From: a virus
Virus record (IMG/VR): IMGVR_UViG_3300027533_000005
Span: 1-50,279 of that record
Reading direction: 5' to 3' (one strand)
Length of the DNA: 50,279 bases
This document shows, in pieces, positions 5,514 to 46,662 of this stretch (positions are counted from its first letter, which is position 1; the number at the start of each line of letters is the position of its first letter). The notes beneath the pieces are model-generated. The model did not search any database and was not told the DNA's origin. It saw nothing but the letters and a program-made list of their open reading frames with translations. A program made the position numbers and the translations under genes.

Positions 5514-5538
5514 CAGCCGTTCAGCAAGTGAACAGCTA
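5514..5538. repeat. 25-bp palindrome family member 1 (cAGCCGTTCA-gcaag-TGAACAGCTA), intergenic
   Basis: Read directly; matches consensus TAGCTGTTCA-N5-TGAACAGCTA. Confidence 0.8.
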
Positions 5539-5569
5539 AACCCTGGTTGTCATTTTATATAGTCTAATC

Positions 5570-5687
5570 TATGGGACCCGTCTTATATGGGACCCGTTAT
5601 CTAATTTCTTACTCAGGCTTGTTGTGTATAAATTCGTAGACAGGTAGTTGGTGGATAGCCTTAGCCCGTAGGGCGATATGGGACCCG
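5570..5687. repeat. Three direct copies of TATGGGACCCG (5570, 5586, 5677) in the divergent control region; iteron/operator candidates
   Basis: Exact 11-mer seen three times between the leftward and rightward promoters. Confidence 0.7.
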
Positions 5688-5775
5688 CGGAGCGGGACGG
5701 TATACCCCCGACTCGTCCGTGGGCATCGATTATCGATAATCATTGTCACGCGCAGCCCACCAAAAAATAGGGCAC

Positions 5776-5804
5776 TTGACAGAATACATATGCCATGCTA
5801 CAAT
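5776..5804 (+). promoter_or_regulatory. Consensus sigma70-type early promoter (rightward, first of tandem pair)
   Basis: TTGACA (5776-5781)-17 nt-TACAAT (5799-5804), TGc extended -10. Confidence 0.7.
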
Positions 5805-5853: not shown

Positions 5854-5882
5854 TTGACAAGCTACCGACGGTATGCTACAAT
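5854..5882 (+). promoter_or_regulatory. Consensus sigma70-type early promoter (rightward, second of tandem pair)
   Basis: TTGACA (5854-5859)-17 nt-TACAAT (5877-5882). Same gtatgcTACAAT context as the promoter at 11084. Confidence 0.7.
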
Positions 5883-6579: not shown

Positions 6580-7074
6580 ATGGCAAAGCGTGTTAAGGGT
6601 GAAAAGAAGGAAGTGGAACCGATTCTCATGGGCGGTTCTCTGGTTCTGGCGGACGAGATTGCGAAGCTTGAGGCTGAGCGTCCCGAGGTGTTCCGGCTGG
6701 TCGGCACCGGCCAGATCGTGGCGGACATTACCGCGGCGAAGCGCACGGTCGAAGGAAAGCCATACTCGAAGGAGTATCTGAGGCTTTGTCCCACGGACGG
6801 TCAGGGTGTTTTGGCGCTACAGCCCACTGAGACGACTTGGAAAGTCTCGGCGGACAAGGACGGTAAGGATACCTCCGACTTCGACGGCCCGTGTTGGGTG
6901 AAGGACTTTTTCTACGGGCACGACCTCGGCGTCAAGAATCGCGAGTCACAGCGTCTGGCGGTTCTGGTCGAAGGGCCGGACAAGGCGAAGCAAGCGGCGG
7001 CCAAGCAGCTCGCGAAAGCTTGGAACATCTCTGAGGACGAAGCGCTCAAGCGGATCGAGGCAATGGGCGCGTAA
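6580..7074 (+). CDS. Early hypothetical protein (164 aa)
   Basis: ORF track; GGAG SD upstream. Confidence 0.6.
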   Translation: MAKRVKGEKKEVEPILMGGSLVLADEIAKLEAERPEVFRLVGTGQIVADITAAKRTVEGKPYSKEYLRLCPTDGQGVLALQPTETTWKVSADKDGKDTSDFDGPCWVKDFFYGHDLGVKNRESQRLAVLVEGPDKAKQAAAKQLAKAWNISEDEALKRIEAMGA

Positions 7075-7217: not shown

Positions 7218-7391
7218 ATGCCTGTTATTGGAGCACGCTACACGTATCTCGGACACTTCTATACGCCGATGGCGACGACCGAAGTAAACGGTCTCAAGTT
7301 CATTTCAGGGATCTGCGTGTGGGGCGGTCGACAGCGCTCTTTCACGATTGCGGCGGCTCGTTTCATGGCCGAAGCGAAGAGGGTCTCGTAA
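7218..7391 (+). CDS. Small early protein (57 aa)
   Basis: Internal Met of ORF 7155..7391 with a GGAG SD; stop overlaps the next ATG (TAATG). Confidence 0.45.
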   Translation: MPVIGARYTYLGHFYTPMATTEVNGLKFISGICVWGGRQRSFTIAAARFMAEAKRVS

Positions 7392-7570
7392 TGCCTCCGG
7401 TCTTCCTGTTGTTCGAGTTTACCCAATACGGTAAGCTACTACGTCGGGTATTCGCGACCCACGAGCTAGCGGAAGAGTATGCGAAGCTATACATGGTAGG
7501 GAACTACCAGATCCGCTCCGAGTGGGTTTACACCGAGAATCACGCGTCCAAATACGTCGAAAAGCGATAG
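7391..7570 (+). CDS. Small early protein (59 aa)
   Basis: Internal Met of ORF 7178..7570, coupled to the previous stop; followed by a terminator. Confidence 0.45.
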   Translation: MPPVFLLFEFTQYGKLLRRVFATHELAEEYAKLYMVGNYQIRSEWVYTENHASKYVEKR

Positions 7571-7573
7571 GTA

Positions 7574-7606
7574 GTTCGGGGGACAGCCAACCCCGACTAT
7601 TTTTTG
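7574..7606 (+). terminator. Rho-independent terminator
   Basis: TCGGGG-loop-CCCCGA hairpin followed by TATTTTTT. Confidence 0.65.
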
Positions 7607-7864: not shown

Positions 7865-7889
7865 GTGCTGTTCAACCGATGAACAGCTA
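7865..7889. repeat. 25-bp palindrome family member 2 (gGTGCTGTTCA-accga-TGAACAGCTA), 6 nt upstream of a -35 box
   Basis: Perfect 8-bp arms GCTGTTCA/TGAACAGC read directly. Confidence 0.85.
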
Positions 7890-7895
7890 GGGCGC

Positions 7896-7924
7896 TTGAC
7901 AAAGTGGCAGGGGTGTGGTATAAT
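7896..7924 (+). promoter_or_regulatory. Consensus sigma70-type promoter
   Basis: TTGACA-17 nt-TATAAT, TGg extended -10. Confidence 0.7.
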
Positions 7925-8085
7925 CAGGTATTCACTGGTAAGCCCTTTGTTTTCAACAGTTTACGGGCGAACAGTGTAAAACTTACACACTAGCAATGAC
8001 GGTGAAACGCACTAGTAGGAAACGAATATCGAACGGTTAATGTAGGTCGGCTCGTTTTCCGGCCATTGAGGGTGAGTTTAAGAGT

Positions 8086-8514
8086 ATGTCCAAAATTATA
8101 CCGGGTGAATACGACATTGTGAGTCGGCAGTCATTAAACCCTAAGAGGTTGCGCGCCGCGCATCAAACGTCGTGCGAACCTGCTCAAGCGTATTTCCTCG
8201 TTGCGCTGATGCACGATCACGCTTTTCCCGGTGCGGCGCACACGCCCATTGTCAGATTGCGTAAACCGAGAAATGGTAAAGGTGCGCGCGGTTGGGGCGG
8301 AATGAAAAAAGGACGTGCATACGTGAGTCTACCTGAGACACCGATGCAGGTTCATGGTTCGCCATACGGCAGACTTCGCGTCGGTTTGGTAGTCCATGAA
8401 TACGCACATGCTGTCGAAATGCTCAAGTTCGGGCATTCCGATCACGGTGCGCGCTTTACCATGATCCTTGACGAGCTACTATTTTTCACTGAACAATTTT
8501 GGGGGACGAAATGA
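8086..8514 (+). CDS. Putative zinc metallopeptidase (HExxH; SprT/WLM-like)
   Basis: VVHEYAHAVEMLKFGHSDHG contains HEXXH plus downstream His residues; GAGGGTGAG SD region. Confidence 0.5.
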   Translation: MSKIIPGEYDIVSRQSLNPKRLRAAHQTSCEPAQAYFLVALMHDHAFPGAAHTPIVRLRKPRNGKGARGWGGMKKGRAYVSLPETPMQVHGSPYGRLRVGLVVHEYAHAVEMLKFGHSDHGARFTMILDELLFFTEQFWGTK

Positions 8515-8551: not shown

Positions 8552-9082
8552 TTGTCTGTGCAGCACATGCCAAAAGGCACGAGAGGATTCCAAGTGAGCG
8601 ACGATACAAGTCAAGATCCAAGTTTAGCCGTTCACCCGGTGAACAGCGAGCCTGAGGTAGTTCCCTCAGACTCTCCAATTCAAGAGCGCTTGAAAAAAGC
8701 CTACATCGACAAATACAATACCCTGATGGTATCAGGTATGAATCGTGAGGCAGTGAACCGGCACATTGCAGACCTCGAAGATATGGTCAAGATGTTCCAG
8801 ACTCAGATTCAAGCTACGATGGACGTTAGCGATGAGTGGGCGCGCTCTGAAACGGCTGAGGAACGGGAAAGGATTCGGCAGGAAGATCGCAAGTATCGCG
8901 CAAAGGCGCGCCCCGCGATGAATGCTGACGGTAGCATCAAGACGACTCATGCGAAGACTGCGAAGCCGGTTGTCATAGGTGACGCTGGGAGCCAGGCATT
9001 CGAGAATCTGGTCAACAAACTGATGCTCAGTGGCATGAGTCGTGAGAACGCAGAGAAACTTCTAAAATCAGGAGGTAAGTGA
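8552..9082 (+). CDS. Hypothetical protein (start uncertain: TTG 8552, ATG 8567 or GTG 8594)
   Basis: ORF track; coiled-coil-like, charged. Confidence 0.5.
   Translation: MSVQHMPKGTRGFQVSDDTSQDPSLAVHPVNSEPEVVPSDSPIQERLKKAYIDKYNTLMVSGMNREAVNRHIADLEDMVKMFQTQIQATMDVSDEWARSETAEERERIRQEDRKYRAKARPAMNADGSIKTTHAKTAKPVVIGDAGSQAFENLVNKLMLSGMSRENAEKLLKSGGK
8625..8649. repeat. 25-bp palindrome family member 3 (TAGCCGTTCA-cccgg-TGAACAGCga), intragenic
   Basis: Read directly; encodes LAVHPVNS. Confidence 0.8.
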
Positions 9083-9238: not shown

Positions 9239-9412
9239 ATGACAGAGACAACGTGTGATAAGGTTCTGCAAGAGGTATCCAAAGTCATAGCACGATACCT
9301 CGAAGGTGCGCTTCTCAGTAGCGAAGCCTGTATGCTACTGATGATCGGCATCAACGAATACAAAAACGAGATCATTCAAGAGTTCGACGTCATTGGAAAG
9401 GATACAGAGTAA
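9239..9412 (+). CDS. Small protein (57 aa)
   Basis: Internal Met of ORF 9131..9412, directly after the preceding stop. Confidence 0.4.
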   Translation: MTETTCDKVLQEVSKVIARYLEGALLSSEACMLLMIGINEYKNEIIQEFDVIGKDTE

Positions 9413-9654
9413 TGTCATTTCAAGTTCGCAAGCCTAGCAGATGGTATCGTCAAGACAGTGAGCCAGGATTCTGGATTCAGCGACTGAAGTTCGGGTCCAA
9501 GTTCATTCTACTTCAGGCAATAATCATCTCAGTGACATTCGTTTGTGGCTCGTTCCAAGAGATTCGCCGTGACGATTCTGGATGGTGCGCGCACTTCAAC
9601 GGCTGGATGGTCTGTAACGATAAAGCCATCACGGATTATACACTTGGCGAGTAA
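9412..9654 (+). CDS. Small protein with one hydrophobic segment (80 aa)
   Basis: ORF track; TAATG coupling. Confidence 0.4.
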   Translation: MSFQVRKPSRWYRQDSEPGFWIQRLKFGSKFILLQAIIISVTFVCGSFQEIRRDDSGWCAHFNGWMVCNDKAITDYTLGE

Positions 9655-9871
9655 GGGACGTCCTGCGCGCGACCCTGAAGGTCCAAGGTATGGCAACAAA
9701 ACGATCTATGTCAAAGACTGGTCCCGTTGGGACCAGTTAATGGAATTGGCTCAGAAGCGAGGACAGTCAGTAAGCGACCTAATCGGTGAAGCTATAGATC
9801 GTATGCTCTCGAAAGAGAATGCAGCGGAGTATAAAATCACACAGATTCGTCGCATTCTGGATGGTGACTAA
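9545..9871 (+). CDS. Ribbon-helix-helix (CopG/Arc-like) DNA-binding protein candidate; start uncertain
   Basis: The C-terminal KTIYVKDWSRWDQLMELAQKRGQSVSDLIGEAIDRML fits a beta-strand/helix/helix pattern. The N-terminal part overlaps ORF 9412..9654. Confidence 0.4.
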   Translation: MARSKRFAVTILDGARTSTAGWSVTIKPSRIIHLASKGRPARDPEGPRYGNKTIYVKDWSRWDQLMELAQKRGQSVSDLIGEAIDRMLSKENAAEYKITQIRRILDGD

Positions 9872-9964: not shown

Positions 9965-10362
9965 GTGAGAGAACAGGAATTCGGAGCAGTCATTATCTCA
10001 TTGATGATCGTGGTCAGACCTACGCATTCAGCGTAGAGACTGTGGCACGGCTCATCGCATGGGGCAAGGCGATGGAAGTTCAGCGTCGAGTAGCGCGGGT
10101 GGTCACAGCGAATGGCTATCGCGTATCGACGGTATTCCTGGGCACTGACCACGGATACGACAATGGTGAGCCTATCCTCTTCGAGACAATGATCTTCGGA
10201 GGTAAGTTCTCTGGTATAGACGAATACCAGGAGCGCTGTTCGACGCTCGCTGAGGCAGCCGAGCAGCATCTCAGGGCAGTCAACATCGCACTGGCTGAGC
10301 CTGAGGACGGTGGCGAGCGCGACGATGCAAGTCAAGGTCCAAGTTCAAAGGTCGACGATTGA
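9961..10362 (+). CDS. Hypothetical protein (133 aa)
   Basis: ORF track; AGGAGG SD upstream of the GTG at 9961. Confidence 0.55.
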   Translation: MSERTGIRSSHYLIDDRGQTYAFSVETVARLIAWGKAMEVQRRVARVVTANGYRVSTVFLGTDHGYDNGEPILFETMIFGGKFSGIDEYQERCSTLAEAAEQHLRAVNIALAEPEDGGERDDASQGPSSKVDD

Positions 10363-10369
10363 AGTTCAA

Positions 10370-10807
10370 ATGTATATCCTGAAGTGTGAAGCGTTCGACG
10401 ACGAACGAAGCGCAAGATACAGTAACGTGTGCTGTAAGGGTGATTGCCATGAGACCAAGACATTCATTAATGTTACACCCTATACTGCCGATTCGACTCT
10501 CGAAAATCGGAAAGTCGATTGGAGTCTTGGAATTCAGGGCTACGTTTGCTGTGGCAGATATGAATTCGTTCGGTCGTTATCTAGAGAGTGGTGGGTCCGA
10601 CGACTTGCAGTTATCGATAATTGGTCGGAAGAGAAGGTCAGAACCTATCTCACCCAGGGATCTTGGCACAGAGTCTATGACAGAGGAACTACAACGGGCG
10701 GTCGACCTGCTCAATCTAAAGCTAGACAAACTAAAGTTCAACATTGTCCACAGTGTGGATCGAACTGGAATGAGGTAGCGTGTGATGACTGCGGTTATTC
10801 AGGATAG
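10370..10807 (+). CDS. Cys-rich hypothetical protein with C-terminal zinc ribbon (CPQCG...CDDCG)
   Basis: Internal Met (MYILKCEAF...) of ORF 10310..10807. Confidence 0.45.
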   Translation: MYILKCEAFDDERSARYSNVCCKGDCHETKTFINVTPYTADSTLENRKVDWSLGIQGYVCCGRYEFVRSLSREWWVRRLAVIDNWSEEKVRTYLTQGSWHRVYDRGTTTGGRPAQSKARQTKVQHCPQCGSNWNEVACDDCGYSG

Positions 10808-11027
10808 GCATACTCGTCGAATGTTAGAATTACAGGCTGCACTTCCTGTATGGCATGAGATGAACACGGAGCGACAGTGGGCGCGGCTGGAGTGCACTGA
10901 GCATATAACGGTCATCGAGTACGGTGTAATACACGATAACGGCTTTATAGAGTGCGCGGTCGGGTCGAAGCTGTTCGTCGCTAAAGAGGGATGGATTGTG
11001 GTCGTGGACTCCAAACGGTGTGGATAG
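10782..11027 (+). CDS. Hypothetical protein (81 aa or shorter)
   Basis: ORF track. Confidence 0.4.
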   Translation: MMTAVIQDRHTRRMLELQAALPVWHEMNTERQWARLECTEHITVIEYGVIHDNGFIECAVGSKLFVAKEGWIVVVDSKRCG

Positions 11028-11049
11028 CTGTTCATCAAATGAACAGTGA
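11025..11049. repeat. 25-bp palindrome family member 4 (TAGCTGTTCA-tcaaa-TGAACAGtga), intergenic
   Basis: Perfect 7-bp arms CTGTTCA/TGAACAG; the left arm overlaps the stop codon of ORF 10782..11027. Confidence 0.85.
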
Positions 11050-11052
11050 AGG

Positions 11053-11069
11053 AGTGTAAATTTTACACT
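11053..11069. promoter_or_regulatory. 17-bp perfect palindrome AGTGTAAA-t-TTTACACT, 15 bp upstream of a -35 box; operator candidate
   Basis: Read directly; related half-sites GTGTAA/TTACAC at 7974-7988. Confidence 0.6.
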
Positions 11070-11083
11070 GTAACTTTTACATA

Positions 11084-11112
11084 TTGACAAAGGGCGGAAA
11101 GTATGCTACAAT
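11084..11112 (+). promoter_or_regulatory. Consensus sigma70-type promoter (middle/replication genes)
   Basis: TTGACA-17 nt-TACAAT, TGc extended -10. Confidence 0.7.
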
Positions 11113-11140
11113 TTACCGTTAATCGAGGAAGGTGCTTCTA

Positions 11141-11329
11141 ATGACGCAGAAACAATACGATCTAATCAAAGAGCAAGGTTATAGGATCGACACACGCGGT
11201 GTGCGATTCACGTTGATCAAGGGCATTCGCGCTGAGTCGTTCGAGACGGAACAGGCCGCATACGACGCTGCAATGCGCGAGATTGCAGACCGAAACCCAG
11301 AAGTGCTACGATACAGAAACGGAGTGTGA
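11141..11329 (+). CDS. Small protein (62 aa)
   Basis: ATG at 11141 with a GAGGAAGG SD; ORF track 11132..11329. Confidence 0.5.
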   Translation: MTQKQYDLIKEQGYRIDTRGVRFTLIKGIRAESFETEQAAYDAAMREIADRNPEVLRYRNGV

Positions 11330-11589
11330 GTGTGAAGACGATTCAAGTTCCTTTTACAGTTAACACAATCTATACGCCCAACGCACCGAAGCAAGGTGAG
11401 GCGGACGTGACGGTGTATGAGCACATCATGGATGCTGTTGAGCAGCTAGGCGAAGACAAGGTGCTCGACATGGTCAACTACGCACAGCGACTCGCTGACA
11501 TGCGCGCCGCACGTAGCAGGTTCATCTGTCTGCACGAGGGACCTGAGAAGCGCAAGGTCGATAGGATGCTGAAGCGTAAGAAAGCCTAG
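11326..11589 (+). CDS. Hypothetical protein (87 aa)
   Basis: ORF track; GTGA start/stop overlap. Confidence 0.45.
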   Translation: MSVKTIQVPFTVNTIYTPNAPKQGEADVTVYEHIMDAVEQLGEDKVLDMVNYAQRLADMRAARSRFICLHEGPEKRKVDRMLKRKKA

Positions 11590-11592
11590 ACT

Positions 11593-13335
11593 GTGCGGCC
11601 TTGGTTCTCGCCCGACGGAGAACCAAGTCCAGACAGCCTAATGCTGTTGGTGCGCGCGTCGCACGTTAAAGATGGCGCGAGAAAGAGAATTGAGTTTATG
11701 AGTACGGGTATTGCGACCCACAAGGGTCAATCGCAGCTACGTTATAAGTGCATACACTGCGGTAAGCAGGTCTCAGAGAAAAAGCGTTCGCGGTTCGGCA
11801 AGTATTGGTCGCTGCTCTTGGAGTGCGGTCATTCACAGCTGGTCGAGGCGCTCTCTGAAGTCAAGGTCGAAGCCGAAGCTGTCGATTGGGACGATTTCCA
11901 GAGCATCGACGGGCGCAAGCTTTACAAGTTCCAGAAGATCGGATCGTCATTCGCGATTGAAGCGAACGGACGATGCTTGATTGCAGATGAGATGGGCCTC
12001 GGCAAGACGGTGCAAGCTATCGCGTTTCTCTGGTATATGAAGCGCAAGGCGATGCCGTGTCTGGTCGCTACTAAGTCTACGCTCAAGTATCAGTGGTCGC
12101 ATGAGCTATACAGATTCCTTCCCGCGGGGCATGTGAATCAGGTCATCGAGAACAAGAATCAGAAGCCTCTGACTGAGCACGGATTCGACGTTGTGATTAT
12201 CTCGTTCGATATGCTGAGGCGTTGCGCCTGGGTCGAGGACGAGGAATTCATGCGGGATCGTTTCAAGACGATCATCATCGATGAAACTCAGAACATTAAG
12301 AATCCTTCCGCGGCGCGGACGGCTTGCGTCAGGAAGCTGGCGAAGTATTCGCCTTACGTGTTGGGTTTGTCGGGGACGCCGATTAAGAATAACGCGCTTG
12401 AGTATTTTACGATTCTCAATATTCTCAAGCCAGAGCGCTTTCCGAGTTACAGGGGTTTCGAGGCGAACTACGTAAACACCTACTCGAACGGTGGATTTAC
12501 GAAGGCGGGTGGTCTGCAAGACCCTGAATACTTCGCTGAGAAGACAAAGGACTTCATCATTCGCCGCACACAGGACGAGGTTATGCCTGACTTGCCGAAG
12601 TTGAATCGGACGTATCGATACGCGGAGCTTGGTCCTGAAGTTGAGAAGCTCTACGCCAAGCTGATGCAGAAGTTCGAGGACGCCATGAACGCGGAAGGCG
12701 GTCCTAAGATGTTCGGGTCGGGCGGCATTCTCGAATACATGACCCACATGAAGCACCTGACGGGGACGGCCAAGGTCGAACCTGTTGTAGACTTCGTGAC
12801 GGACTTCCTTCAAGACACAGATCGGAAGATGACCATCTTTGTGCATCACAAGGACGTTCATGGCAAGATCGAGGCGCTGCTTTCTACTGTGTGTCAGGCA
12901 CTCGAACTCGACATGCCAATCAGCTTGTCTTCGGACCTGAGTCCTGAGCAGCGTCACGAGGTTGTGATGCAGTTCAAGAACAGCCCGAAAGCACGAGTCA
13001 TGATTGCATCGACACTGGCAAGCGGCGAAGGGCTGAACTTGCAGTTCTGTTCAGACTGTATCATGGCAGAGCAACAGTGGAATCCTGCTAACGAGGAACA
13101 AGCGGAAGCGAGATTCAAGCGCATCGGGTCGGAGGCAGCGATTATCAATGCTACCTACCAGATTGCACTCGGAACGATCGACGAGTTCCTTGCAGACCTC
13201 AAGGCTGGCAAGCGACACATCATCGAAGAGGCTATGACGGGCGTCAAGAACGAGCAGCCCTATAGCGAGCAAGACATGATGAAGGAACTTGCAGACATCA
13301 TCATGACGAAGGGGCTGAAGCGTTGGAAGCTCTAA
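11593..13335 (+). CDS. SNF2/Rad54-family helicase-like ATPase with N-terminal zinc ribbon
   Basis: Motif I ADEMGLGKT, motif II IIDETQNIKN, C-terminal helicase domain motifs (QAEARFKRIG), CIHCG...ECGH. Confidence 0.85.
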   Translation: MRPWFSPDGEPSPDSLMLLVRASHVKDGARKRIEFMSTGIATHKGQSQLRYKCIHCGKQVSEKKRSRFGKYWSLLLECGHSQLVEALSEVKVEAEAVDWDDFQSIDGRKLYKFQKIGSSFAIEANGRCLIADEMGLGKTVQAIAFLWYMKRKAMPCLVATKSTLKYQWSHELYRFLPAGHVNQVIENKNQKPLTEHGFDVVIISFDMLRRCAWVEDEEFMRDRFKTIIIDETQNIKNPSAARTACVRKLAKYSPYVLGLSGTPIKNNALEYFTILNILKPERFPSYRGFEANYVNTYSNGGFTKAGGLQDPEYFAEKTKDFIIRRTQDEVMPDLPKLNRTYRYAELGPEVEKLYAKLMQKFEDAMNAEGGPKMFGSGGILEYMTHMKHLTGTAKVEPVVDFVTDFLQDTDRKMTIFVHHKDVHGKIEALLSTVCQALELDMPISLSSDLSPEQRHEVVMQFKNSPKARVMIASTLASGEGLNLQFCSDCIMAEQQWNPANEEQAEARFKRIGSEAAIINATYQIALGTIDEFLADLKAGKRHIIEEAMTGVKNEQPYSEQDMMKELADIIMTKGLKRWKL

Positions 13336-17974: not shown

Positions 17975-19243
17975 ATGAAGCTAGCGATTGAGACAATACA
18001 AGTCAAGGAAGAACCTATTGACGAGGCCGAGGTTCAGAACCTAGCTGAGTCTTTCAAGGAACGCGGTCAGATACACCCCATAGCTGTTCACCAAATGAAC
18101 AGCAGCGTAGTCCTTATTACAGGACGCAAGCGTCTTGCAGCAGCCAAACTACTGGCATGGCAAGAGGTTGACTGTGCAATCTACGAGAACCTCACAGAAA
18201 ATCAGATAGAAGAGATTGCGCTGCACGAGAACCTGAAGAGGTACAACCTGCCTTGGACTGAGGAAGTCCTAATGGTCGAGAGGTTGCATCTGCTCAAGCA
18301 GCTCATCTATGGCAAGCCACCTGAACAGGGTGGCGGACATCAAAAGACAGGCTGGAGTGTCAGAGACACCGCAGCCGCGCTCCAGCAGGCACTCGGTAAA
18401 ACCTCCCAAGACCTACAACTAGCTAGGCATGTTAGGCTCGACCCTTCGCTGTCTAAGGTGAAGGACAAGCGCACTGCAATGCGTCTGGTCAAGATCGCAG
18501 TGAAGCGATTCGACGACGAAGAGCAGGCAGGTGCGGCCGATTTCGGGATGAAGATGAACCAACTGTTCTGTGGTGATTCGGCAGTCGCCATGAAACACTT
18601 CCCAGACAATACCTTCCATGCCTGTATCACTGATCCGCCTTGGCTCAGATTCTTTGATTCAACTTTGCGACTCGATGAACGAACAGTGCCCGTATTTCGG
18701 GAGCTGTATAGGGTCATGCGTTATGATAGTTTCGTCTACATCTTCTGTGGATTTGACGATTATCACTACTACGCTGGGCGCACAGAGCCAGACCCTATAC
18801 TACCGAGCGAGACCAGAAGAATACCTGGAGTCCTTGAAGACATCGGGTTCCGTGTGGCAAAAACTCCTCTCTTCTGGAGAAAGCTCAAGAGCTTGTCCCG
18901 TAGAGGCGTTACTCCATGGGAGCACGGACGGGATTTCGAACTCATTACGGTTGCTGTCAAAGGGAATCCAGTCCTGAAAGGCGGGACGCAGGATACCTCA
19001 TTCTTTGACGTGGACGCCGTCCCACCTGTGAAGCTCATTCATCCCAACGAGAAGCCTGTTGACTTGATGAAGAAGCTCCTCGATGAATGCACTCATGAGG
19101 GTAATGCAGTCATCGACCCCTTTGCAGGTTCCTTCTGCGTGCCAGACGCTTGCAAACAAATGAAGCGTTACTGGATCGGAATAGATAGGGATCAAGAATC
19201 GTATTCGAGAGGTTGCAAGCGTCTAGGAATTGAGGAGCAGTGA
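17975..19243 (+). CDS. ParB-N (ParB/Srx) domain fused to a beta-class N6A/N4C DNA methyltransferase
   Basis: GRKRLAAAKLL (ParB box II-like). Motif IV ITDPPW precedes motif I VIDPFAGSF (beta-class order). Start taken at the ATG at 17975 with a GGAGG SD. Confidence 0.8.
   Translation: MKLAIETIQVKEEPIDEAEVQNLAESFKERGQIHPIAVHQMNSSVVLITGRKRLAAAKLLAWQEVDCAIYENLTENQIEEIALHENLKRYNLPWTEEVLMVERLHLLKQLIYGKPPEQGGGHQKTGWSVRDTAAALQQALGKTSQDLQLARHVRLDPSLSKVKDKRTAMRLVKIAVKRFDDEEQAGAADFGMKMNQLFCGDSAVAMKHFPDNTFHACITDPPWLRFFDSTLRLDERTVPVFRELYRVMRYDSFVYIFCGFDDYHYYAGRTEPDPILPSETRRIPGVLEDIGFRVAKTPLFWRKLKSLSRRGVTPWEHGRDFELITVAVKGNPVLKGGTQDTSFFDVDAVPPVKLIHPNEKPVDLMKKLLDECTHEGNAVIDPFAGSFCVPDACKQMKRYWIGIDRDQESYSRGCKRLGIEEQ
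18081..18105. repeat. 25-bp palindrome family member 5 (TAGCTGTTCA-ccaaa-TGAACAGCag), inside the ParB-N coding region
   Basis: Perfect 8-bp arms; encodes IAVHQMNS. Confidence 0.85.
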
Positions 19244-24052: not shown

Positions 24053-24246
24053 GGTTATTCTTGGCAGACGAAAAGATTGAATTGCCGGAAGTTGCAGTGC
24101 TTGAGAAGCTCGAAGTTTGTGTTGCGCTTCTCAACCATATGCGACAGAACAAGAGCAATGTGGATGGTAGAGGTCTTTCGATCGCTATCACCCACATCGA
24201 AACTGCTGCGCTCTGGGTCAAGGACGCGGTACGCGAGGAAGGCTAG
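24049..24246 (+). CDS. Small helical protein (65 aa), last rightward gene
   Basis: ORF track; ATGA overlap. Its 3' end overlaps the convergent 994-aa gene by 29 bp. Confidence 0.4.
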   Translation: MRLFLADEKIELPEVAVLEKLEVCVALLNHMRQNKSNVDGRGLSIAITHIETAALWVKDAVREEG

Positions 24247-30247: not shown

Positions 30248-30900
30248 TCACCTTTTTCGATGGTCAAGGATTCCCAGGCATGAGGATCGCCTGTCTTACC
30301 AATCCAGTTGATTGGTGCATCTGGCGACGTTGGTCCTCCACCCTTGATACCTGCGAGCAAACCTGAATTGGTCCGGAGCGCGATCTTGTCGCCCAGCTTG
30401 ACACCAGTGAACTGCGCAAGCGAAGCGTCAATCATGGCCTGAACCTGAGCCTCTGTCAGTCCACCAGTTGCTGGAGGTTGAGTTCCTCCTTGAGCACCCT
30501 GTACAGGAGCATACTCATTGCCAGCAACCCAATAGAAAGCCCACACCAAACCACCGCTTTTCGCATTGAAGTTCTCTTTCGCGTTCCTTGTCTTGCTGTA
30601 GGTCTGAGCTGCGTCGTCGAGGTACTGCATACAACGAGTGTAGTAACCCAGCTCGTCGGGGATGGCGGTCGGGAGGAACATACGACCCTTCGGCCCACCC
30701 GAGTACTGCTGAGTGAAAGCGAAGTAGGGCATCGAGGCGTCAGGCCTGACGTTGGGACCATAGCCGGGAGGAAGTCCGCAGCTATTCATGACAGTTTCCC
30801 AATCATTGGCAGGCTGACCAATGACCTTACCAATACCCTGAAAGAACCACTGCTTGGCTTCTTCCTCTGTCTGAGGACAACGACTCATGTCAAATGGCAT
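30244..30900 (-). CDS. Hypothetical protein (218 aa) in the rSAM cassette
   Basis: ORF track; ATGA overlaps. Confidence 0.5.
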   Translation of the reverse strand: MPFDMSRCPQTEEEAKQWFFQGIGKVIGQPANDWETVMNSCGLPPGYGPNVRPDASMPYFAFTQQYSGGPKGRMFLPTAIPDELGYYTRCMQYLDDAAQTYSKTRNAKENFNAKSGGLVWAFYWVAGNEYAPVQGAQGGTQPPATGGLTEAQVQAMIDASLAQFTGVKLGDKIALRTNSGLLAGIKGGGPTSPDAPINWIGKTGDPHAWESLTIEKGE

Positions 30901-32227
30901 GTTTGCTCTCCAATAGTAACGCTCTGTAATTGTCGTTCTTGACTGCTGTCACTACAGTGAAATATGGATCTGTGTAGTACTCTAGACCCTCACGCCATTC
31001 ACCATAGTTGTAGAGAAGTAGTCGTTTTGAGTACTGTGAAATCACCTCCATAAGGGCTGTACCCTTGTAAGGATCAACCTCGAATAGGCGTTGGGACGAG
31101 AGCAGAACTAGATCTACTTTCTCCCACTCGCGGAAGCTAAAGATGTCAGAACAGTAGGGAATGACACCCGGAACTATGTCCTCGATGACTGCCGTATTTG
31201 AATCGACACCAAGCAATTTCGTATTTGGATGCGCGGCCTGAATCCTCTTGAGGAGTATGCCATTACCACAACCTAGGTCTAGAACCTTGCCATGAACCTT
31301 AGCATCTGATAGGACCGAGACGATGAACGAGTGCGCCGCGCTCATATCCGATTTGGATTTGAAGCCGTTGAAAAACAATCGAGATGTCACGACGTTCTGG
31401 AATGGAAACTTATTCCCGCTCGCACCATGTGCAGGGTATAGCTCACTGTCCAGTCGTAACGTAGCCTTGGTAGGCAAGGGATCAGATGCGTAGATGGTCT
31501 TGAGGATAGGAGTAGTTACCATCGCTACACCATGGAGAGAAGTCCACTCCATAGGCATAACGAGTAGCTGCTGCAACCAATCCGCAGGCATCATCAGACC
31601 CTCTGTATGCATCATGACGCCAATGATCTTCGCACCTATCTTCACGCTCTCCTGACAGTTTACACTACAAGGAAGATGAAAGACTCCACGTATACCAATG
31701 TGCCGTAGTAGAACATTGTTATACATCAAGTTTCTCTGAAGAGGCTGACCATACGAATGGATCGTTAGGTCTCGCCATCCTTCTTTCTTCCAATGCGTAA
31801 CAAAGGATGCAGTACAACAATCTGGAAAACCAAGCATATGACCAATAGCAAGGTCAGCCTGAGCTTTCCAAGCATCTATAAACTTCTCAGGTTCTAGACC
31901 AAAATACACTCTGTAGGTAAATCTCTCTCCTGCTACGTAGGGTATCGACGCATTACCGTAGCTTTCTGTCGCGCCGTCCAACCCAACGATCGCCATCGGA
32001 ATGTTTTTGGCGAGCGCCCAGTTCTGTACATCTGGTAGCTCTTCAGGTGTGACGCTCTGCAACACACCGGGACGCATACCCTGCAATAGCGTGAGGCGCT
32101 CGATAGCATGCCAACTTGCAGAGATACTTCTAATCTTAGGCTCCCAGTATTCCCTTGCATGCTCCGACACCCACACAGTCCGAAGGAAATCTGGAATTGT
32201 AAAGTCTAATCTTTCTAGTTTGCCCAC
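30890..32227 (-). CDS. Cys-rich N-terminal domain fused to a class I SAM-dependent methyltransferase
   Basis: GFPDCCTASF...HLPCSVNC in the N-terminal ~290 aa; motif I KVLDLGCGNGILL in the C-terminal domain. Confidence 0.7.
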   Translation of the reverse strand: MGKLERLDFTIPDFLRTVWVSEHAREYWEPKIRSISASWHAIERLTLLQGMRPGVLQSVTPEELPDVQNWALAKNIPMAIVGLDGATESYGNASIPYVAGERFTYRVYFGLEPEKFIDAWKAQADLAIGHMLGFPDCCTASFVTHWKKEGWRDLTIHSYGQPLQRNLMYNNVLLRHIGIRGVFHLPCSVNCQESVKIGAKIIGVMMHTEGLMMPADWLQQLLVMPMEWTSLHGVAMVTTPILKTIYASDPLPTKATLRLDSELYPAHGASGNKFPFQNVVTSRLFFNGFKSKSDMSAAHSFIVSVLSDAKVHGKVLDLGCGNGILLKRIQAAHPNTKLLGVDSNTAVIEDIVPGVIPYCSDIFSFREWEKVDLVLLSSQRLFEVDPYKGTALMEVISQYSKRLLLYNYGEWREGLEYYTDPYFTVVTAVKNDNYRALLLESKHAI

Positions 32228-33390
32228 TCTGGTTTCTCCGTTAGAATTGTAGCTCTAATACCATCTGTATGATCCCCATGAGAATCCCCGTGAGGAGTAT
32301 CACCGTGGCTGTTCACCGGATGAACACCTGCTAGTATCCTATCGACAATCTTCTGCTTCTTATCACAACAGAGGATTCTTACACTTTTATCACTACGTAG
32401 ATCTAATTCAATCTTCTCAAAGAGAGAGTACCAGAGTCTGCAATTAACTGTGCGGTTTCTCCAGTCGCCGTCAATTGATGTGCCTGGACAGTGACCCTTG
32501 CAGAAAGCGAAGTATTTACAATCTCTACAACCACCATGCTCTTGAGGCGTGTAATAAAGTCCAATATATCTCTCATTTCCTGGTCGGTCGGCTTTGACCC
32601 AGTTGACTCCGTCCTTGTTAGTTCTACCACAATTTGACATAACACCATTTGGAGAAACTCCTTGAACCGCAGCGGTTGTAATTGGGTCGCAACTATTCCA
32701 CACGCACGATACCTGAGGCTGTTCTTCAGTTAGAAGTCTCTTGATGTCAATGAAGGGCGCAACTTGTATCTTTGCTGTCTTCGACCACTCATAGAGTTCT
32801 AGGAAGGTTTCGATTTGTCTTTCTTCGGAGAGGGCGAGATCACGTCTTCCACAATCGATTTCCATCTCGTGTAGATTAAGATACCTGATACCACCCCTAC
32901 TAAGATGATCGAACCAGTTACACAAAGCAGGAATATCATTGTTCCCCCTATGTATGGTGCAAATGATAGAGGTATTGATACCTTGCTTGAATAGCTTGTA
33001 AATGGCCTCTTCAGTTTTCTCTGTCAGTTCATCAGTGCAGCGAACTCGATTCATCTTGCCAGGACCATCGATCGAGATACCTACTTGCACTGCGTATCGA
33101 GAGAATAGTTCTATGTGCTTATCGGTAATCAACGACCCGTTTGTTTGAATCCCATTACGACCAAACTTCTCAAATCCATAAGCCCAGACCTCTTCGAGGT
33201 GTTCGACGGGCGCGAGCAAAGGCTCACCGCCGAAGACCGAGAAGTCAGAACCTAGTCTTTCAAGTTGTGCCTTGACCTTAGACCAGTCCCTTGGAACATT
33301 GATGTTCCCTGCCTCACGCATAGGGTCTTGATAGCAATAGCCACAGGAGATATTGCAGGCAATCCCGACAGGTAGATACTCTATACTCAT
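32215..33390 (-). CDS. Radical SAM enzyme with C-terminal SPASM domain (peptide/protein-modifying maturase type)
   Basis: CX3CX2C (ACNISCGYCY, nt 33334-33357), FGGEPLL, IQTNGS, ISIDG. SPASM CX2CX5CX3C (CRDCKYFAFCKGHC) plus upstream Cys residues. Confidence 0.85.
   Translation of the reverse strand: MSIEYLPVGIACNISCGYCYQDPMREAGNINVPRDWSKVKAQLERLGSDFSVFGGEPLLAPVEHLEEVWAYGFEKFGRNGIQTNGSLITDKHIELFSRYAVQVGISIDGPGKMNRVRCTDELTEKTEEAIYKLFKQGINTSIICTIHRGNNDIPALCNWFDHLSRGGIRYLNLHEMEIDCGRRDLALSEERQIETFLELYEWSKTAKIQVAPFIDIKRLLTEEQPQVSCVWNSCDPITTAAVQGVSPNGVMSNCGRTNKDGVNWVKADRPGNERYIGLYYTPQEHGGCRDCKYFAFCKGHCPGTSIDGDWRNRTVNCRLWYSLFEKIELDLRSDKSVRILCCDKKQKIVDRILAGVHPVNSHGDTPHGDSHGDHTDGIRATILTEKPEWAN
32306..32330. 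repeat. 25-bp palindrome family member 6 (tGGCTGTTCA-ccgga-TGAACAcctg), inside the rSAM gene tail
   Basis: 6-bp perfect arms TGTTCA/TGAACA; encodes GVHPVNS on the minus strand. Confidence 0.75.
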
Positions 33391-42824: not shown

Positions 42825-42836
42825 GACAGGTAACTC

Positions 42837-44108
42837 CTATCGGGCGCTCCGCTTCGGTGTGTACTTCCCATTCAGAAAATCCATGTCGCTCGTCTTGTTC
42901 CAGTTAACATCTCTTGCCGAAGGAGTTTTGGCGGCGGAACTAGACGCGCTTCGTCCGGATGCCGGAATGTTTGTACGTTTGACCTGCGGCGCACCAGTGA
43001 TTGCTTTTGTTGGATGACTAACTTGTAGACCTGCCTCGGCACGTAGCTTCTGTCTGACTGAAGGAATCAGAGTTTTCGCCCCTCGCAAGTAGGCGTTTAT
43101 GATTTCTTTGCGAGTCTCTTTTGGAAACCCAGTCGATTCTGCTTTGCGCCACAGTGCGTTCATCTGACGAAGATGACGTGTATCTTTAGCTAGAAGTTGA
43201 TCGACCTCTTGAAAAATAGAATCCTTCAACGTCTTCTTGAGGAAGGGGCTTAAACTCTTGTCATTGTCTATCCCCTTCGCGATTTCTTTGATCGTTTCTT
43301 CACGACCTTCGCCGTAGCACTCGTTTGTGAAGTCTGCGGCTTTCTCTTGCCAGAAGGCTTGACGCTCGGATTTGACCCTTTCTTCGGCCTCATTAGGCAC
43401 CTCCGGCTTTCGCTCAAGGTCGGGAATCTCGGGCTTACCGTAAAGATACTTTGCAATATGTAGGGCGGCGTTTCGGAGATTAGTATTCTCAGTTCCTGCT
43501 GCATCTCGGATGGCGCTCCGTAGCACATCATTGACAGCTGGCAGCGTAAGTTCCGCGTAAAGCTCCATCGACTTCTCTTTGATGGTGGGAAGGAAGTCGC
43601 GCGCGACCGCTTTGAAGGACTCCTTATTGCTCTGCTCGACGTCATTTAGAAGCTCTTTGATAGAACCACCAATGATGGTGTTCTCCAGACGATTGAAATA
43701 GGTTGCGCGCTGCGCGGCATCTCGGGCATCTTCCGGTGTCGCAAATATCTCACTATACGCACGGTCATTGCGTATCGACTCAGCAAGCTTCGGAAATTCC
43801 TTGAAGATAGCCGGATACTTGGTCTTAATATCCTTAAATCTAAGTTGACCCTCTGGAACTTCAGCATCATCTGGTTCTGGCTCGACCTTAGGTTTTTCTT
43901 CTTCCTCGGCCTTGACCTCTTCCTCAGTTTCAAAGGTGACCTCTCCAGGTTCCTCAGCGACAGCCTCTTCCTCTTCGGCTTCTGCTGCCTCAGGCTCTTC
44001 GTTAAGGATCTCTAGATCACTCTTTCCTTCAGAAGATTCAGAAGATCCAGTAGGACCACCTAGTGCGTCTGCGTCGTCGTACAACAACTGAAAATCTTTA
44101 AGGAACAT
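42837..44108 (-). CDS. Scaffolding protein
   Basis: Highly acidic N-terminal (EEPEAAEAEEEEAVAEEPGE...), helical, lies between portal and capsid. Confidence 0.6.
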   Translation of the reverse strand: MFLKDFQLLYDDADALGGPTGSSESSEGKSDLEILNEEPEAAEAEEEEAVAEEPGEVTFETEEEVKAEEEEKPKVEPEPDDAEVPEGQLRFKDIKTKYPAIFKEFPKLAESIRNDRAYSEIFATPEDARDAAQRATYFNRLENTIIGGSIKELLNDVEQSNKESFKAVARDFLPTIKEKSMELYAELTLPAVNDVLRSAIRDAAGTENTNLRNAALHIAKYLYGKPEIPDLERKPEVPNEAEERVKSERQAFWQEKAADFTNECYGEGREETIKEIAKGIDNDKSLSPFLKKTLKDSIFQEVDQLLAKDTRHLRQMNALWRKAESTGFPKETRKEIINAYLRGAKTLIPSVRQKLRAEAGLQVSHPTKAITGAPQVKRTNIPASGRSASSSAAKTPSARDVNWNKTSDMDFLNGKYTPKRSAR

Positions 44109-46662
44109 TTGCTATGCCTCTCGGTGCTGGAATGTTTTCAGTATCCTTAGCTTTGGGTGGCGAGCCTGACTGGGGCGGCTGACCACCTTCAGGCGGCGGC
44201 GCGCCCCCTTGCATCATCATTTGCTTCATCATCTCCATCTGCTCCATCTCTACATGATTCTGCAAATGGGCGACAACATTCATATAGCCACCAGGATTGG
44301 TCATCTTCTGATCCATCCCGATCTCTGATACACACCATTCCTTGAGTACCGCGATGTGAACTTGGTGCTGGTCGATGTCCTGTTCCACCGGAACAGTCGC
44401 CTGTAGGATTGGCGTACCGTCCATGGGATTCATCCCAACCTGCTGTGGCTGACCAGTGATCAACTCGTAAATCTCATATAGCTGTTTGCTTCTATCCGAA
44501 TCACCTGGGACAGTCAGCTCCGTAATACCTATCAACTCCGCGACCGTGTGTCGATTCTCAGGGTGGAACAGAGCCTCATTAAGAGCCTCGTTATTCAGTT
44601 CAACAAGGCGCATAATGATGTCGCGCTTCTGAGACCAGGCTAGAGGAAACTGCTCTGAAAGTTCAGGCTCGACCTGACCAACCTGACCAGACATCTCCGC
44701 CTTACGAATCCATACATTCACGAAGGAGTTCTTGCCCTGTGACTTTACAATCTTCTCGTCCGTCTTCATGTTCTTAGCATAGCACTTGACTGCTTTGCTC
44801 TCAAGATCGGACCAGAAGAATGAAATCATCTTGTAGATGATCTGCAATCTCTGAAGGGCTTGCGCCCGACTCATGGAGTATTCGGAGGCGGTGTCGCTGC
44901 CTCCTTGCATTGATCCTCCGTAGACGGACGGTACAGTTCCAAGTACAAACTGACCAGCGGTCTGTAGATCATCATGGAATTCTTTGTGCTCTCTGGAAAG
45001 AAGAGCCGCACGATTCGTATAGAAAGCCGCCGAGATATTTCCTCCGACCGGTGCTTTGACAGGATATAGACTCCCAGGAGAAACCTCCATCGATCTATAT
45101 TTTTGTAGGTCGATGACACTAGAATCAACGAACGTCTCAGGGATTCCGTGTCGTATGGTCTCGACAGTAAGCTGGAATACTTCATTAGTCATCTCTTGAA
45201 TAGGTACGAGAGGATTAGCATAAGGCTGACCGTGGACACGATCCAGGATAGGATCAACAGACACAGTCCAATACTCGTCCATATCCTCGTCGTTAACTTC
45301 GGCCAGGACATCATTTATGTAGATAGCTCTCAAACCTGAGGGGAACTGGGACTTGAGCGCAAGCACACGCTCATCATCCGACTTCCCAATCTTGTTAAAC
45401 ATCCACGGCCTGAGCCAGATTTGTCGACAGGTGCAAACATCTGCATCATCATCCGTCTGAACAATAGAGGGGGCGCGCGCCCATCTGTCGTATCTTTCCG
45501 AATCCGCCGTTGGCACGATTTTGTCAGCGATATGAGGGAACTTCTCCTGCATCTCAGCGACGTCGTGCTCATCGTTCAGGATCAGATATCCCGACTGTTG
45601 CAGAGTGCGCGCCCGTGGGAAAATCTGGACATTGGTTGCTCCGTATAGTTCAATGATCTGCCGTGACTTCGCGACAGTCTCTTCCCAATCTAGTTCTTGA
45701 GTAGGCTCTTCTTCTGTCTCAATCATAGGAGCTACGTTCGCCCCACAGTTCGGACAAATCTCCGCGTTCGGTGGAGGAGGCTCCATCATTCCTGGCTGCG
45801 CCAGGACATCTTCCTCAGGAGGAGGAATCATCGCCTCATCAGGTAAGCCTTCCAGACCCATCGCTTCAGGAACAGGAGGCTCAATCGGCATTCCCATCTC
45901 CGCAGGCATATCTTGCTCCATCACAGTCTCTACTGGAGGGGGTTCTACTGGAGCCTCTGCCTGCGGATAGGCGCTGTTCTCGATCGTCGTTGCTGCACCT
46001 TCAGGGACGGGCATTTCTTCGACGGGCGCTCCACCGAGTTGGTCCGCAAGCTCCCCGGTGTTCATCGGCTGAACAGCTAGGTTCTCACCACATTCGGGGC
46101 AATATCCCACCTTGTTCTTGATCATTCCCTGACGGAAATGTTGAACAGTTTCTGTACCATACTTGCTGTTCTGGTCGTTGAACGTATATGCAGCTATGAC
46201 GCCCTGATTGTATAGAAGGCCAATAGCCTTCATAAAGAGGAACGGAGCTTTATTGTGTTTGCGTATTAATTCAGCGAGGCGTGTGTAAGCCTGAGCGGTA
46301 TAAATGTCTTCAGCCTGGTCTGCATCATTTGGATAAAAGCGAGTTGCTGGCAGAGACTGTGAGATTGCAGAGATAATGACTTCTCCGTGGGCTTTGTAGA
46401 CGTTGACGATTTTGTTCTCGATGTCCGCCTCTTCTGCGTAATCATAATCATCCCCTTCGGTGCTGCTGATAAATCTCCAGTCGTGCGCAACCTCAGAGAA
46501 GTAGATGTTTTGCAGACCTTCCCAGAAGTACTCGTTACGCTTGAGAACTTTCATCATCCGGTCGCGAGCGAACTGGTCCCTTGAATCTATCTGCAATACC
46601 AAGGAGTCAAGAGCTTGCTTCAGCTCAGGCGCGAGGATTTCGTCTTCAGCGTTATTCGTCAT
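44098..46662 (-). CDS. Portal protein (854 aa) with a Cys4/Pro-Glu-rich insertion
   Basis: Position (after TerL and the large ORF, before the scaffold) and size. Its ATG overlaps the stop of the upstream ORF (ATGA). Confidence 0.6.
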   Translation of the reverse strand: MTNNAEDEILAPELKQALDSLVLQIDSRDQFARDRMMKVLKRNEYFWEGLQNIYFSEVAHDWRFISSTEGDDYDYAEEADIENKIVNVYKAHGEVIISAISQSLPATRFYPNDADQAEDIYTAQAYTRLAELIRKHNKAPFLFMKAIGLLYNQGVIAAYTFNDQNSKYGTETVQHFRQGMIKNKVGYCPECGENLAVQPMNTGELADQLGGAPVEEMPVPEGAATTIENSAYPQAEAPVEPPPVETVMEQDMPAEMGMPIEPPVPEAMGLEGLPDEAMIPPPEEDVLAQPGMMEPPPPNAEICPNCGANVAPMIETEEEPTQELDWEETVAKSRQIIELYGATNVQIFPRARTLQQSGYLILNDEHDVAEMQEKFPHIADKIVPTADSERYDRWARAPSIVQTDDDADVCTCRQIWLRPWMFNKIGKSDDERVLALKSQFPSGLRAIYINDVLAEVNDEDMDEYWTVSVDPILDRVHGQPYANPLVPIQEMTNEVFQLTVETIRHGIPETFVDSSVIDLQKYRSMEVSPGSLYPVKAPVGGNISAAFYTNRAALLSREHKEFHDDLQTAGQFVLGTVPSVYGGSMQGGSDTASEYSMSRAQALQRLQIIYKMISFFWSDLESKAVKCYAKNMKTDEKIVKSQGKNSFVNVWIRKAEMSGQVGQVEPELSEQFPLAWSQKRDIIMRLVELNNEALNEALFHPENRHTVAELIGITELTVPGDSDRSKQLYEIYELITGQPQQVGMNPMDGTPILQATVPVEQDIDQHQVHIAVLKEWCVSEIGMDQKMTNPGGYMNVVAHLQNHVEMEQMEMMKQMMMQGGAPPPEGGQPPQSGSPPKAKDTENIPAPRGIANVP
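46055..46079. repeat. 25-bp palindrome family member 7 (ccggTGTTCA-tcggc-TGAACAGCTA), inside the portal gene
   Basis: 6-bp perfect arms; encodes LAVQPMNT on the minus strand. Confidence 0.75.

Follow-up and report, generated by a model that had tools for sequence, protein, structure and literature searches.

The locus considered here raises the question of which protein reads a family of 25-bp palindromes dispersed over a phage genome. It comprises the 50,279 nucleotides (nt) of the IMG/VR virus record IMGVR_UViG_3300027533_000005 (positions 1 to 50,279, hereafter the window), in which an initial annotation, made from the letters alone, had noticed seven copies and proposed selection at the DNA level for the site of a dimeric DNA-binding protein. 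Emphasis is placed on a protein encoded by the phage itself, a fusion of a ParB-type N-terminal half with a DNA methyltransferase (ParB-MTase, 17975-19243); on a modest balance of the evidence from sequence comparison, the palindromes are probably the cognate, parS-like recognition sites of this fusion.

The seven copies lie at the coordinates first reported for them, and the distances then given from site to -35 element are also correct (6 nt for the promoter at 7896, 34 nt for that at 11084 and 39 nt for the leftward promoter at 5474). Their positions, with that of an eighth, decayed copy, are as follows.

5514-5538: copy 1, CAGCCGTTCA-GCAAG-TGAACAGCTA, intergenic, 39 nt from the leftward promoter's -35 within the divergent control region
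7865-7889: copy 2, intergenic, ending 6 nt upstream of the -35 of a perfect TTGACA-17-TATAAT promoter
8625-8649: copy 3, within the early open reading frame (ORF) 8552-9082, encoding LAVHPVNS
11025-11049: copy 4, overlapping the stop codon of ORF 10782-11027 and separated by 34 nt from the downstream -35 at 11084
18081-18105: copy 5, within the ParB-MTase gene, in the codons for PIAVHQMNS of the ParB N-terminal domain
24116-24140: eighth site, decayed, TTTGTGTTGCGCTTCTCAACCATAT, within the small ORF 24049-24246
32306-32330: copy 6, near the 3' end of the radical SAM/SPASM gene (32215-33390, minus strand), encoding GVHPVNS
46055-46079: copy 7, within an 854-aa late ORF (44098-46662, minus strand), encoding LAVQPMNT

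The 25-mer of the window palindrome is TAGCTGTTCACCAAATGAACAGCTA. Motif counts were set against a chance baseline of 100 dinucleotide-preserving shuffles: the 12-nt core TGTTCA-N5-TGAACA has five exact matches in the window and none in the shuffles, and the 20-nt arm consensus, with up to three mismatches, has seven and none, respectively, which places the family far above chance. The pair GTTCA-Nx-TGAAC, scanned from x = 0 to 14, occurs seven times and always at x = 5; the everted orientation at 5-nt spacing does not occur in the window. When symmetrised over 44 distinct sites, the consensus is TAGCYGTTCA-YCNGR-TGAACRGCTA, a 12-N1-12 palindrome, so that the conservation of the arms described initially holds while the freedom of the spacer does not (YCNGR). 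Centre-to-centre gaps round the circle are 2.4, 0.8, 2.4, 7.1, 14.2, 13.7 and 9.6 kb. The degenerate copy proposed at 28352 is not supported as a member: it agrees with the consensus at 15 of the 20 arm positions, a score that shuffled sequence reaches about 0.2 times per genome, and it lies outside the regions aligned with relatives.

For the four in-gene copies, both the reading frame and the encoded peptides agree with the original description (established from ORF phase). The argument drawn from this shared frame stands in part, as one frame is indeed closed by TAG/TGA, but it is weak as evidence, since four of four copies in one of the two remaining frames corresponds to p ~1/8. Including the equivalent of 24145 in relatives, the in-gene copies (8625, 18081, 32306, 46055) all encode A-V-(H/Q)-x-(M/V/L)-N-(S/G/T); the remaining open frame would encode S-C-S-x-x-E-Q-L, and the frame bias is mild (~1/32 for six of six). 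The label of portal protein given to the 854-aa ORF that carries copy 7 found no backing, as no Pfam, PHROG, NCBIfam or PDB match was obtained for it.

The sites can be followed through IMG/VR relatives whose proteins are 70-89% identical to those of the window, two of them complete at 50.5 and 50.6 kb. Each relative carries five to seven copies at orthologous positions, corresponding to 5520, 7877, 8630, 11037, 18093, 32320 and 46065 of the window. Copy 1 is present in C43499, C27886, C18067 and further relatives, copy 3 in C43499 and C27886, copy 4 (followed in the window by a second palindrome, GTGTAAATTTTACAC) in C43499, C27743 and C27886, copy 6 in C43499, C27886, C20016 and C09168_137, and copy 7 in at least nine related contigs. 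Single sites can be lost: copy 2 is conserved in C27886 and deleted in C43499, where its promoter is retained, and copy 5, the only site position conserved across the whole wider phage family, is recoded in one lineage. The eighth position, decayed in the window, is intact as TAGCTGTTCATCAAGTGAACAGCAT in four relatives.

Over the aligned orthologous regions, identity is 85.5% in the arms, 69.5% in the spacer and 71% in the 120-nt flanks, so the comparison of sites with flanks that had been suggested came out in favor of the sites. Positions 5 and 21 are complementary in 28 of 47 arm pairs (27.3 expected) and positions 4 and 22 in 36 of 47 (36.4 expected). The arms thus vary independently, with no compensatory change, which argues for a symmetric protein dimer on two half-sites and not for a hairpin. 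Positional conservation, the independence of the arms and the synonymous codon choice in the ParB-MTase gene (see below) together support the original proposal of DNA-level selection, and the sites very probably belong to a phage-linked dimeric reader.

The candidate reader is encoded in the early region.

17975-19243, plus strand: ParB-MTase, starting with the ATG at 17975, candidate reader of the sites

Residues 1 to ~185 form a ParB/Noc-type N-terminal domain followed by a helix-turn-helix (HTH), and residues ~195-422 a beta-class N6A/N4C DNA methyltransferase with the motifs DPPW and DPFAGS; Pfam assigns ParB_N (PF02195; 33.9 bits against a cut-off of 26.3) and N6_N4_Mtase (PF01555). With phmmer, residues 15-174 (counted from the ATG at 17975) align to Noc (7ng0/7nfu) through the HTH at E = 1e-8, and the NCBIfam noc/parB_part matches fall below their curated cut-offs. 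Boxes II and III are present, ITGRKRLAAA and HENLKRYNL aligning to GERRWRA and ENLQRE of Noc/Spo0J, and across 44 homologues R53, E85 and R89 do not vary and N86 hardly does. The AF2 model derived from these homologues (pLDDT 89.7) places the HTH helices at 129-136 and 140-155 (GKTSQDLQLARHV). Foldseek retrieves Noc/ParB structures of the N-terminal and DNA-binding domains for the N-terminal half (~190 columns, E ~1e-8, including DNA-bound Noc 7ol9) and the beta-class methyltransferases M1.HpyAVI, CcrM and M.PvuII for the C-terminal half. The C-terminal dimerisation domain of ParB is absent, the methyltransferase (C-terminal 230 residues) standing in its place; no ParA-like match was found in any scanned window ORF, and the LG(R/K)GL motif is absent from the ParB-MTase sequence.

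This protein had been named among the possible readers and is now the leading candidate, by virtue of its fold, the site within its gene and the presence/absence pattern described below. It contains the sole recognisable sequence-specific double-stranded DNA-binding domain kept in all motif-bearing relatives. A survey published in 2025 lists ParB-fold/N6_N4 methyltransferase fusions among those that are more frequent in phages and prophages, assigns them neither a DNA site nor a ligand, and describes their function only as "perhaps in anti-defense" (PMC12704722). A literature search returned no described cognate site for ParB-MTase fusions, and a search with the bare 8-mer returned primer sequences only.

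A profile search with ParB-MTase gave 78 homologue loci from a broad family of 45-50-kb phages (28-85% identical), in which the relaxed core GTTC-N7-GAAC is about 7-fold above chance. Among homologues 35-85% identical, this core occupies the homologous codons V-[H/R/Q]-x-x-N in 22 of 34 distinct sequences, where synonymous codon usage would give 1.0; every peptide that permits the motif carries it, and the spacer drifts. The H/Q-vs-R residue at these codons tracks the A-vs-G choice made at the remaining sites of each genome, which indicates that the in-gene copy belongs to the same site family.

The distribution of the sites was compared between phages with and without the gene, using loci recovered by a profile search with the DUF3987 helicase (8-sequence alignment) and de-replicated into clusters, both groups having the same PolA and helicase. 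Outside the ParB-MTase gene, the motif GTTCR-N5-YGAAC occurs 27 times in the 28 clusters that carry the gene (510 kb, 1.9 expected) and twice in the 18 clusters that do not (330 kb, 1.3 expected; Fisher p = 6e-4). L294, a locus nested within the gene-bearing clade, keeps only a 102-aa remnant of the HTH region (7273-7581, just upstream of PolA) and has no site in 20.5 kb. At the level of comparative genomics, these data show genetic linkage of the sites to the ParB-MTase gene and their restriction to phages encoding it.

More distant phages carry palindromes of other sequence. L275, whose ParB-MTase is 29% identical, has GGATTTCA-W5-TGAAATCC three times (at 694, 9154 and 15657; 0.003 expected). 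The Desulfofustis phage LS06-2018-MD01 (L361, OP947158.1) is likewise distant, with a ParB-MTase 27% identical and the ParB-MTase/PolA/primase gene order of the window, and has the following features.

249, 2251, 7685, 15474, 23059, 29970, 37110 and 41281 of OP947158.1: eight dispersed 25-bp copies of GCTATGTCCCAA-N-TTGGGACATAGC, the full palindrome being GCTATGTCCCAANTTGGGACATAGC
10342-11634 of OP947158.1: ParB-MTase

When aligned from the dyad, the palindromes of the window, L275 and the Desulfofustis phage are all 12-N1-12 with a TGTYC/TTCA core in the same register. Residue 145 of the recognition helix is Q with the core TTCA (five clades), mostly E with TTCG and R with TCCC; the pairing, which rests on few clades, suggests a chemically sensible match between protein and site. 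A de novo palindrome search with exact 6-mers returned nothing in the distant relatives L006, L064 and L075; by the relaxed core GTTC-N7-GAAC, sites are present in L006/L249.

These observations may be brought together as follows. A ParB-MTase dimer would read the two half-sites (AGCYGTTCAYC) through its ParB/Noc-type HTH, with the methyltransferase half substituting for the usual C-terminal dimerisation domain of ParB, and the seven sites, 0.8-14 kb apart, would concentrate the enzyme on phage rather than host DNA. This spacing is within the ParB spreading range. Given its intact nucleotide-binding Boxes II and III, ParB-MTase might act as a clamp gated by nucleoside triphosphate (NTP) that closes, slides off the sites and methylates a short target en route, a speculative step. 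The stronger statement, that ParB-MTase is a nucleotide-gated sliding clamp which loads only at the palindromes and methylates in cis, so that an "addressed" methylation marks the phage genome and not the host chromosome, is a possible but doubtful one. The palindromes of each lineage, the Desulfofustis phage variant among them, would then serve as address labels whose sequence co-evolves with the recognition helix of ParB throughout a large family of 44-50-kb phages. The promoter-proximal copies (5514, 7865, 11025) could also modulate transcription, as KorB does on RK2; this speculative role is treated as secondary because the distance from site to promoter varies (40, 47 and 54 nt at an orthologous promoter). 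Among the roles first offered for the palindromes, the partition/condensation type is the closest to the evidence, yet ParA is missing and nothing points to a plasmid lifestyle.

Several results weigh against assigning the sites to ParB-MTase. An NPxQPR-like Box I is not evident in the ParB-MTase alignment, and phage ParB-N6N4 methyltransferase fusions are not among the reported NTP binders (PMC12704722). In the PolA tree the phages with ParB-MTase form essentially one clade, with the single loss in L294, so that the presence/absence pattern represents few independent events. Several loci that encode the fusion have no detectable site outside its gene, and no palindrome family stands out clearly in Microcystis phage Mel-JY34, the sole relative in culture that was identified. 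Identical recognition helices occur in some clades with mixed A/G cores. HTH position 142 ranks second of 454 ParB-MTase columns in its association with the A/G choice of the core, but PolA, the AAA_24 protein and the nuclease score equally high; the test does not discriminate because phylogenetic structure dominates. Two further observations, on a zinc-ribbon protein and on the iterons of phage P4, count on the same side and are given with the explanations to which they belong.

The sites could instead be operators of another phage-encoded dimeric protein, a global transcription regulator of the sigma70-type promoters, with the in-gene copies as roadblocks or looping partners. The candidates are a Cys-rich zinc-ribbon protein (10310-10807) and the unannotated conserved early proteins 6580-7074, 8086-8514 and 8552-9082. 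Four of the seven sites do lie 6-46 nt upstream of promoter-like -35 elements, the early proteins are kept in all close motif-bearing relatives, and the zinc-ribbon protein is confined to the clade that has both ParB-MTase and the motif (17 of 29 vs. 0 of 17). Such a regulator is nevertheless unlikely: no DNA-binding fold is recognisable in the candidates beyond a generic L32-like zinc ribbon (from a PDB profile search with the zinc-ribbon protein), homologues of the early proteins were not detected in the distant motif-bearing loci, and none of the zinc-ribbon protein in the L255-257 clade, where the motif is clear. Moreover, the distance from site to promoter is not conserved, and the only family-wide site lies in the ParB-MTase gene, far from promoters. 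The ribbon-helix-helix (RHH) protein at 9545-9871, which had been put forward as a reader, was rejected, as it gives weak Arc/MatP-like matches only and has no homologue in any motif-bearing relative. A reader supplied by the host had been envisaged as well. A host protein exploited by the phage, be it a global regulator, a nucleoid-associated or chromosome-organising factor or a LexA-type repressor, would account for a motif that varies by phage clade, the variants then reflecting the hosts, and the core GTTC-N7-GAAC superficially recalls LexA boxes containing GTTC/GAAC; to our knowledge, however, the inverted CTGT-N11-ACAG / GTTC-N7-GAAC geometry fits no LexA motif. The 16-base core GCTGTTCA-N5-TGAACAGC was searched in one genome per species from 185,579 species and gave at least 120 matches. 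Those listed include scattered single matches in unrelated taxa, with generic hairpin flanks and A/T-rich loops and without the TA...TA flanks or the YCNGR spacer, and among the matches listed there is no regulon-like set, no prophage and no phage relative. Since, in addition, loss of ParB-MTase coincides exactly with disappearance of the motif, L294 within the motif-bearing clade being one such case, and one copy is held in the ParB-MTase gene across the family, the host-factor proposal is left without support and is quite unlikely.

The replicative primase/helicase of the phage (DUF3987 protein, 22865-24052) might also use the palindromes as iteron-like loading sites, after the model of the alpha protein of phage P4. 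The half-site consensus CYGTTCAYC coincides exactly with the type I repeat annotated in P4 (CTGTTCACC / GGTGAACAG), in relatives the DUF3987 gene is closely followed by a site, much as alpha is followed by crr in P4, and the top associated column of the DUF3987 protein falls in its C-terminal region. Even so, this explanation is very unlikely, given that phages with DUF3987 and PolA but without ParB-MTase are not enriched in sites (the 2 in 330 kb mentioned above), that neither P4 alpha nor its C-terminal domain gave a significant BLAST match in the window, and that the DUF3987 protein has no sequence match in PDB. The window sites are isolated, strictly inverted pairs at fixed spacing found genome-wide, whereas those of P4 form clustered arrays of mixed orientation, and the site downstream of the helicase gene is decayed in the window. 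Finally, the palindromes might act as nucleic-acid structures, whether RNA hairpins (for processing, stability or termination), DNA cruciforms or remnants of small mobile elements. At every copy a stem of 8-10 bp closed by a 3-5-nt loop is possible (~-11 kcal/mol), with a z-score reaching -4.1 for the 18081 copy, but in five of the seven copies the z-scores are between -0.8 and -2.0 and in two of the seven the hairpin is outside the minimum-energy fold. No T-run or terminator call accompanies any copy, a change in one arm is not compensated in the other, and the 5514 copy, upstream of both divergent promoters, is not expected in their transcripts. The arm sequence is conserved beyond pairing among ~70%-identical genomes and the flanks of the copies share no similarity, the latter speaking against mobile-element copies; an explanation by structure is hardly credible.

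The genome that carries the sites appears to be that of a lytic phage, with no sign of a plasmid lifestyle. Bases 1-127 are repeated exactly at 50153-50279, a terminal duplication that marks the assembly as a complete 50,152-bp circle; its junction is crossed by the late operon on the minus strand. Megablast against GenBank phages gave no near match, the best PolA identity being 27-29%. The plus-strand early/replication arm (~5.5-24.2 kb) encodes an SNF2 helicase, a PD-(D/E)XK nuclease, an AAA_24 protein, DUF669, ParB-MTase, UDG-PolA and the DUF3987 primase/helicase; the minus-strand late arm (~31 kb) starts at 5412, wraps the circle and encodes TerL, a head-like protein, an SU10-type adaptor, tail proteins and a radical SAM/SPASM enzyme with a methyltransferase. 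Neither integrase nor repressor nor ParA was found in scans of the window ORFs, and the window has no tRNAs. Six strong sigma70-type promoters with extended -10 elements are clustered at 5.4-11.1 kb, including the following.

5446-5474, minus strand: leftward sigma70-type promoter, TTGACA-17-TGcTACAAT, extended -10, heading the ~31-kb late operon
5776-5804 and 5854-5882: tandem rightward promoters
7896-7924, plus strand: promoter of sigma70-type consensus, directly downstream of copy 2
11084-11112, plus strand: sigma70-type promoter, extended -10, downstream of copy 4, preceding the SNF2 helicase/replication module

These five promoters are near-identical (TTGACA-17-(TG)nTAyAAT), and transcription of the ~31-kb late operon seems to rely on a single one of them (5474). 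A second palindrome, GTGTAA-N3-TTACAC, occurs at 7974-7988, in the leader of the transcript from the 7896 promoter, and at 11054-11068, 4 nt past copy 4 and just upstream of the 11084 promoter; GTGTAA is found at the same offset after the main palindrome in several relatives, and the element may be the operator of a second regulator. The divergent control region holds, between the leftward and the rightward tandem promoters, three direct repeats ATATGGGACCCG at ~5569-5692, one copy of which is conserved in a relative and which could be origin iterons or a packaging/terminase site.

Some of the neighbouring genes deserve mention on their own account. The small ORF 24049-24246, in which the relatives' palindrome copy encodes VAVHxxNS, has a weak match to the Acb2/Tad1 hairpin domain (E = 1.2e-4, below the Pfam cut-off) that suggests a possible anti-CBASS/Thoeris sponge. 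At 8086-8514, directly downstream of the copy-2 promoter, lies the gene of an early protein of 142 aa in which HEYAH forms a SprT-like metalloprotease motif, and the leftward operon includes a phage-encoded cold-shock-domain protein (4428-4778, minus strand). The radical SAM/SPASM peptide-maturase-like gene and an adjacent gene with a SAM-methyltransferase domain (30890-33390, minus strand) lie within the late structural module, which is an unusual location. Outside these phages, two Streptomyces loci (L133, 3263-3325; L101, 2210-2370) carry three tandem GTTCA-N5-TGAAC beside a MobA/VirD2 relaxase gene, spaced 23-24 bp apart in L133; the arrangement looks like an oriT or a site of an accessory protein and is unrelated to the phage.

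For ParB-MTase fusions, which rank with the commonest ParB architectures of phages and prophages, a concrete target is now proposed, consisting of a 25-bp palindrome, a defined protein and a predicted recognition helix, and related phages offer natural specificity variants, including the Desulfofustis phage with eight clear sites. If the assignment is true, the ParB-parS principle would extend from DNA segregation to the site-directed recruitment of a DNA-modifying enzyme, would connect with the phage thymine dioxygenases activated by ParB (PMC13229309) and would give a phage a route to restrict protective methylation to its own genome. Were the reading of addressed methylation also true, these widespread fusions of phages would gain their first described function and their first cognate site, and a new viral way to tell self from non-self DNA would have been found. 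Even with another reader, the dispersed palindromes, family-wide and lineage-specific, are a new genomic signature of this phage group.

Among known systems with repeated protein-binding sites, the likeness to P4 is confined to the half-site. The type I ori/crr iterons of P4 (L281, NC_001609) lie at 4314-4405 and 9310-9413, clustered in both orientations, and are read by the winged-helix domain of the primase-helicase; no homologue of this domain occurs in the window, and the motif does not follow the helicase gene. The P1 C1 operators, the stoperators of mycobacteriophage L5 and the conserved inverted repeats of phiC31 are dispersed sites for a temperate-phage immunity repressor. They share with the window the scattering of many copies of one protein-binding site in or between genes; however, the P1 and L5 sites are asymmetric, whereas those of the window are strict palindromes in a genome with no repressor, integrase or ParA found.

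Closer parallels are found among the ParB proteins. The parS and NBS sites are 16-bp palindromic loading sites of the CTPase clamps of the ParB family; the parS half-site is TGTTTCAC, which the window half-site TGTTCAC resembles, and one of the Bacillus subtilis parS sites lies within spo0J. As in the ParB-parS and Noc-NBS systems, ParB-MTase has the ParB N-terminal fold, Box II (GxxRxxA), Box III (ENLxR) and a ParB/Noc-type HTH, and the window sites are palindromic, read as two half-sites and present in several dispersed copies, one of them inside the gene of the candidate reader. They differ in being 25 bp (12-N1-12) and not 16 bp, canonical parS is absent from the window, and ParB-MTase lacks two features that define ParABS, the C-terminal dimerisation domain and the ParA partner. 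KorB of the IncP plasmid RK2 has about a dozen identical palindromic OB sites in promoter-proximal, promoter-distal and intragenic positions, a mix of promoter-proximal and intragenic sites like that of the window. KorB is a repressor with a C-terminal dimerisation domain and the partners KorA and IncC (ParA), in contrast to ParB-MTase, which is fused to an enzyme and has no known partner proteins.

KorB is cited as a CTP-using ParB homologue in the survey that also describes the methyltransferase fusions (PMC12704722). The latter share with the window protein the Pfam architecture PF02195 plus PF01555, and differ from it in that a candidate cognate site family has been found here and the HTH is retained. 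A phage ParB homologue has recently been described (2026) that activates thymine dioxygenases (5mYOX) on double-stranded DNA; it is a separate protein which keeps the C-terminal dimerisation domain, is without an obvious DNA-binding domain and has no loading site described (PMC13229309). In both cases a phage ParB homologue is paired with a DNA-modifying enzyme, whereas the ParB of the window is fused to its enzyme, keeps the HTH and has candidate sites.

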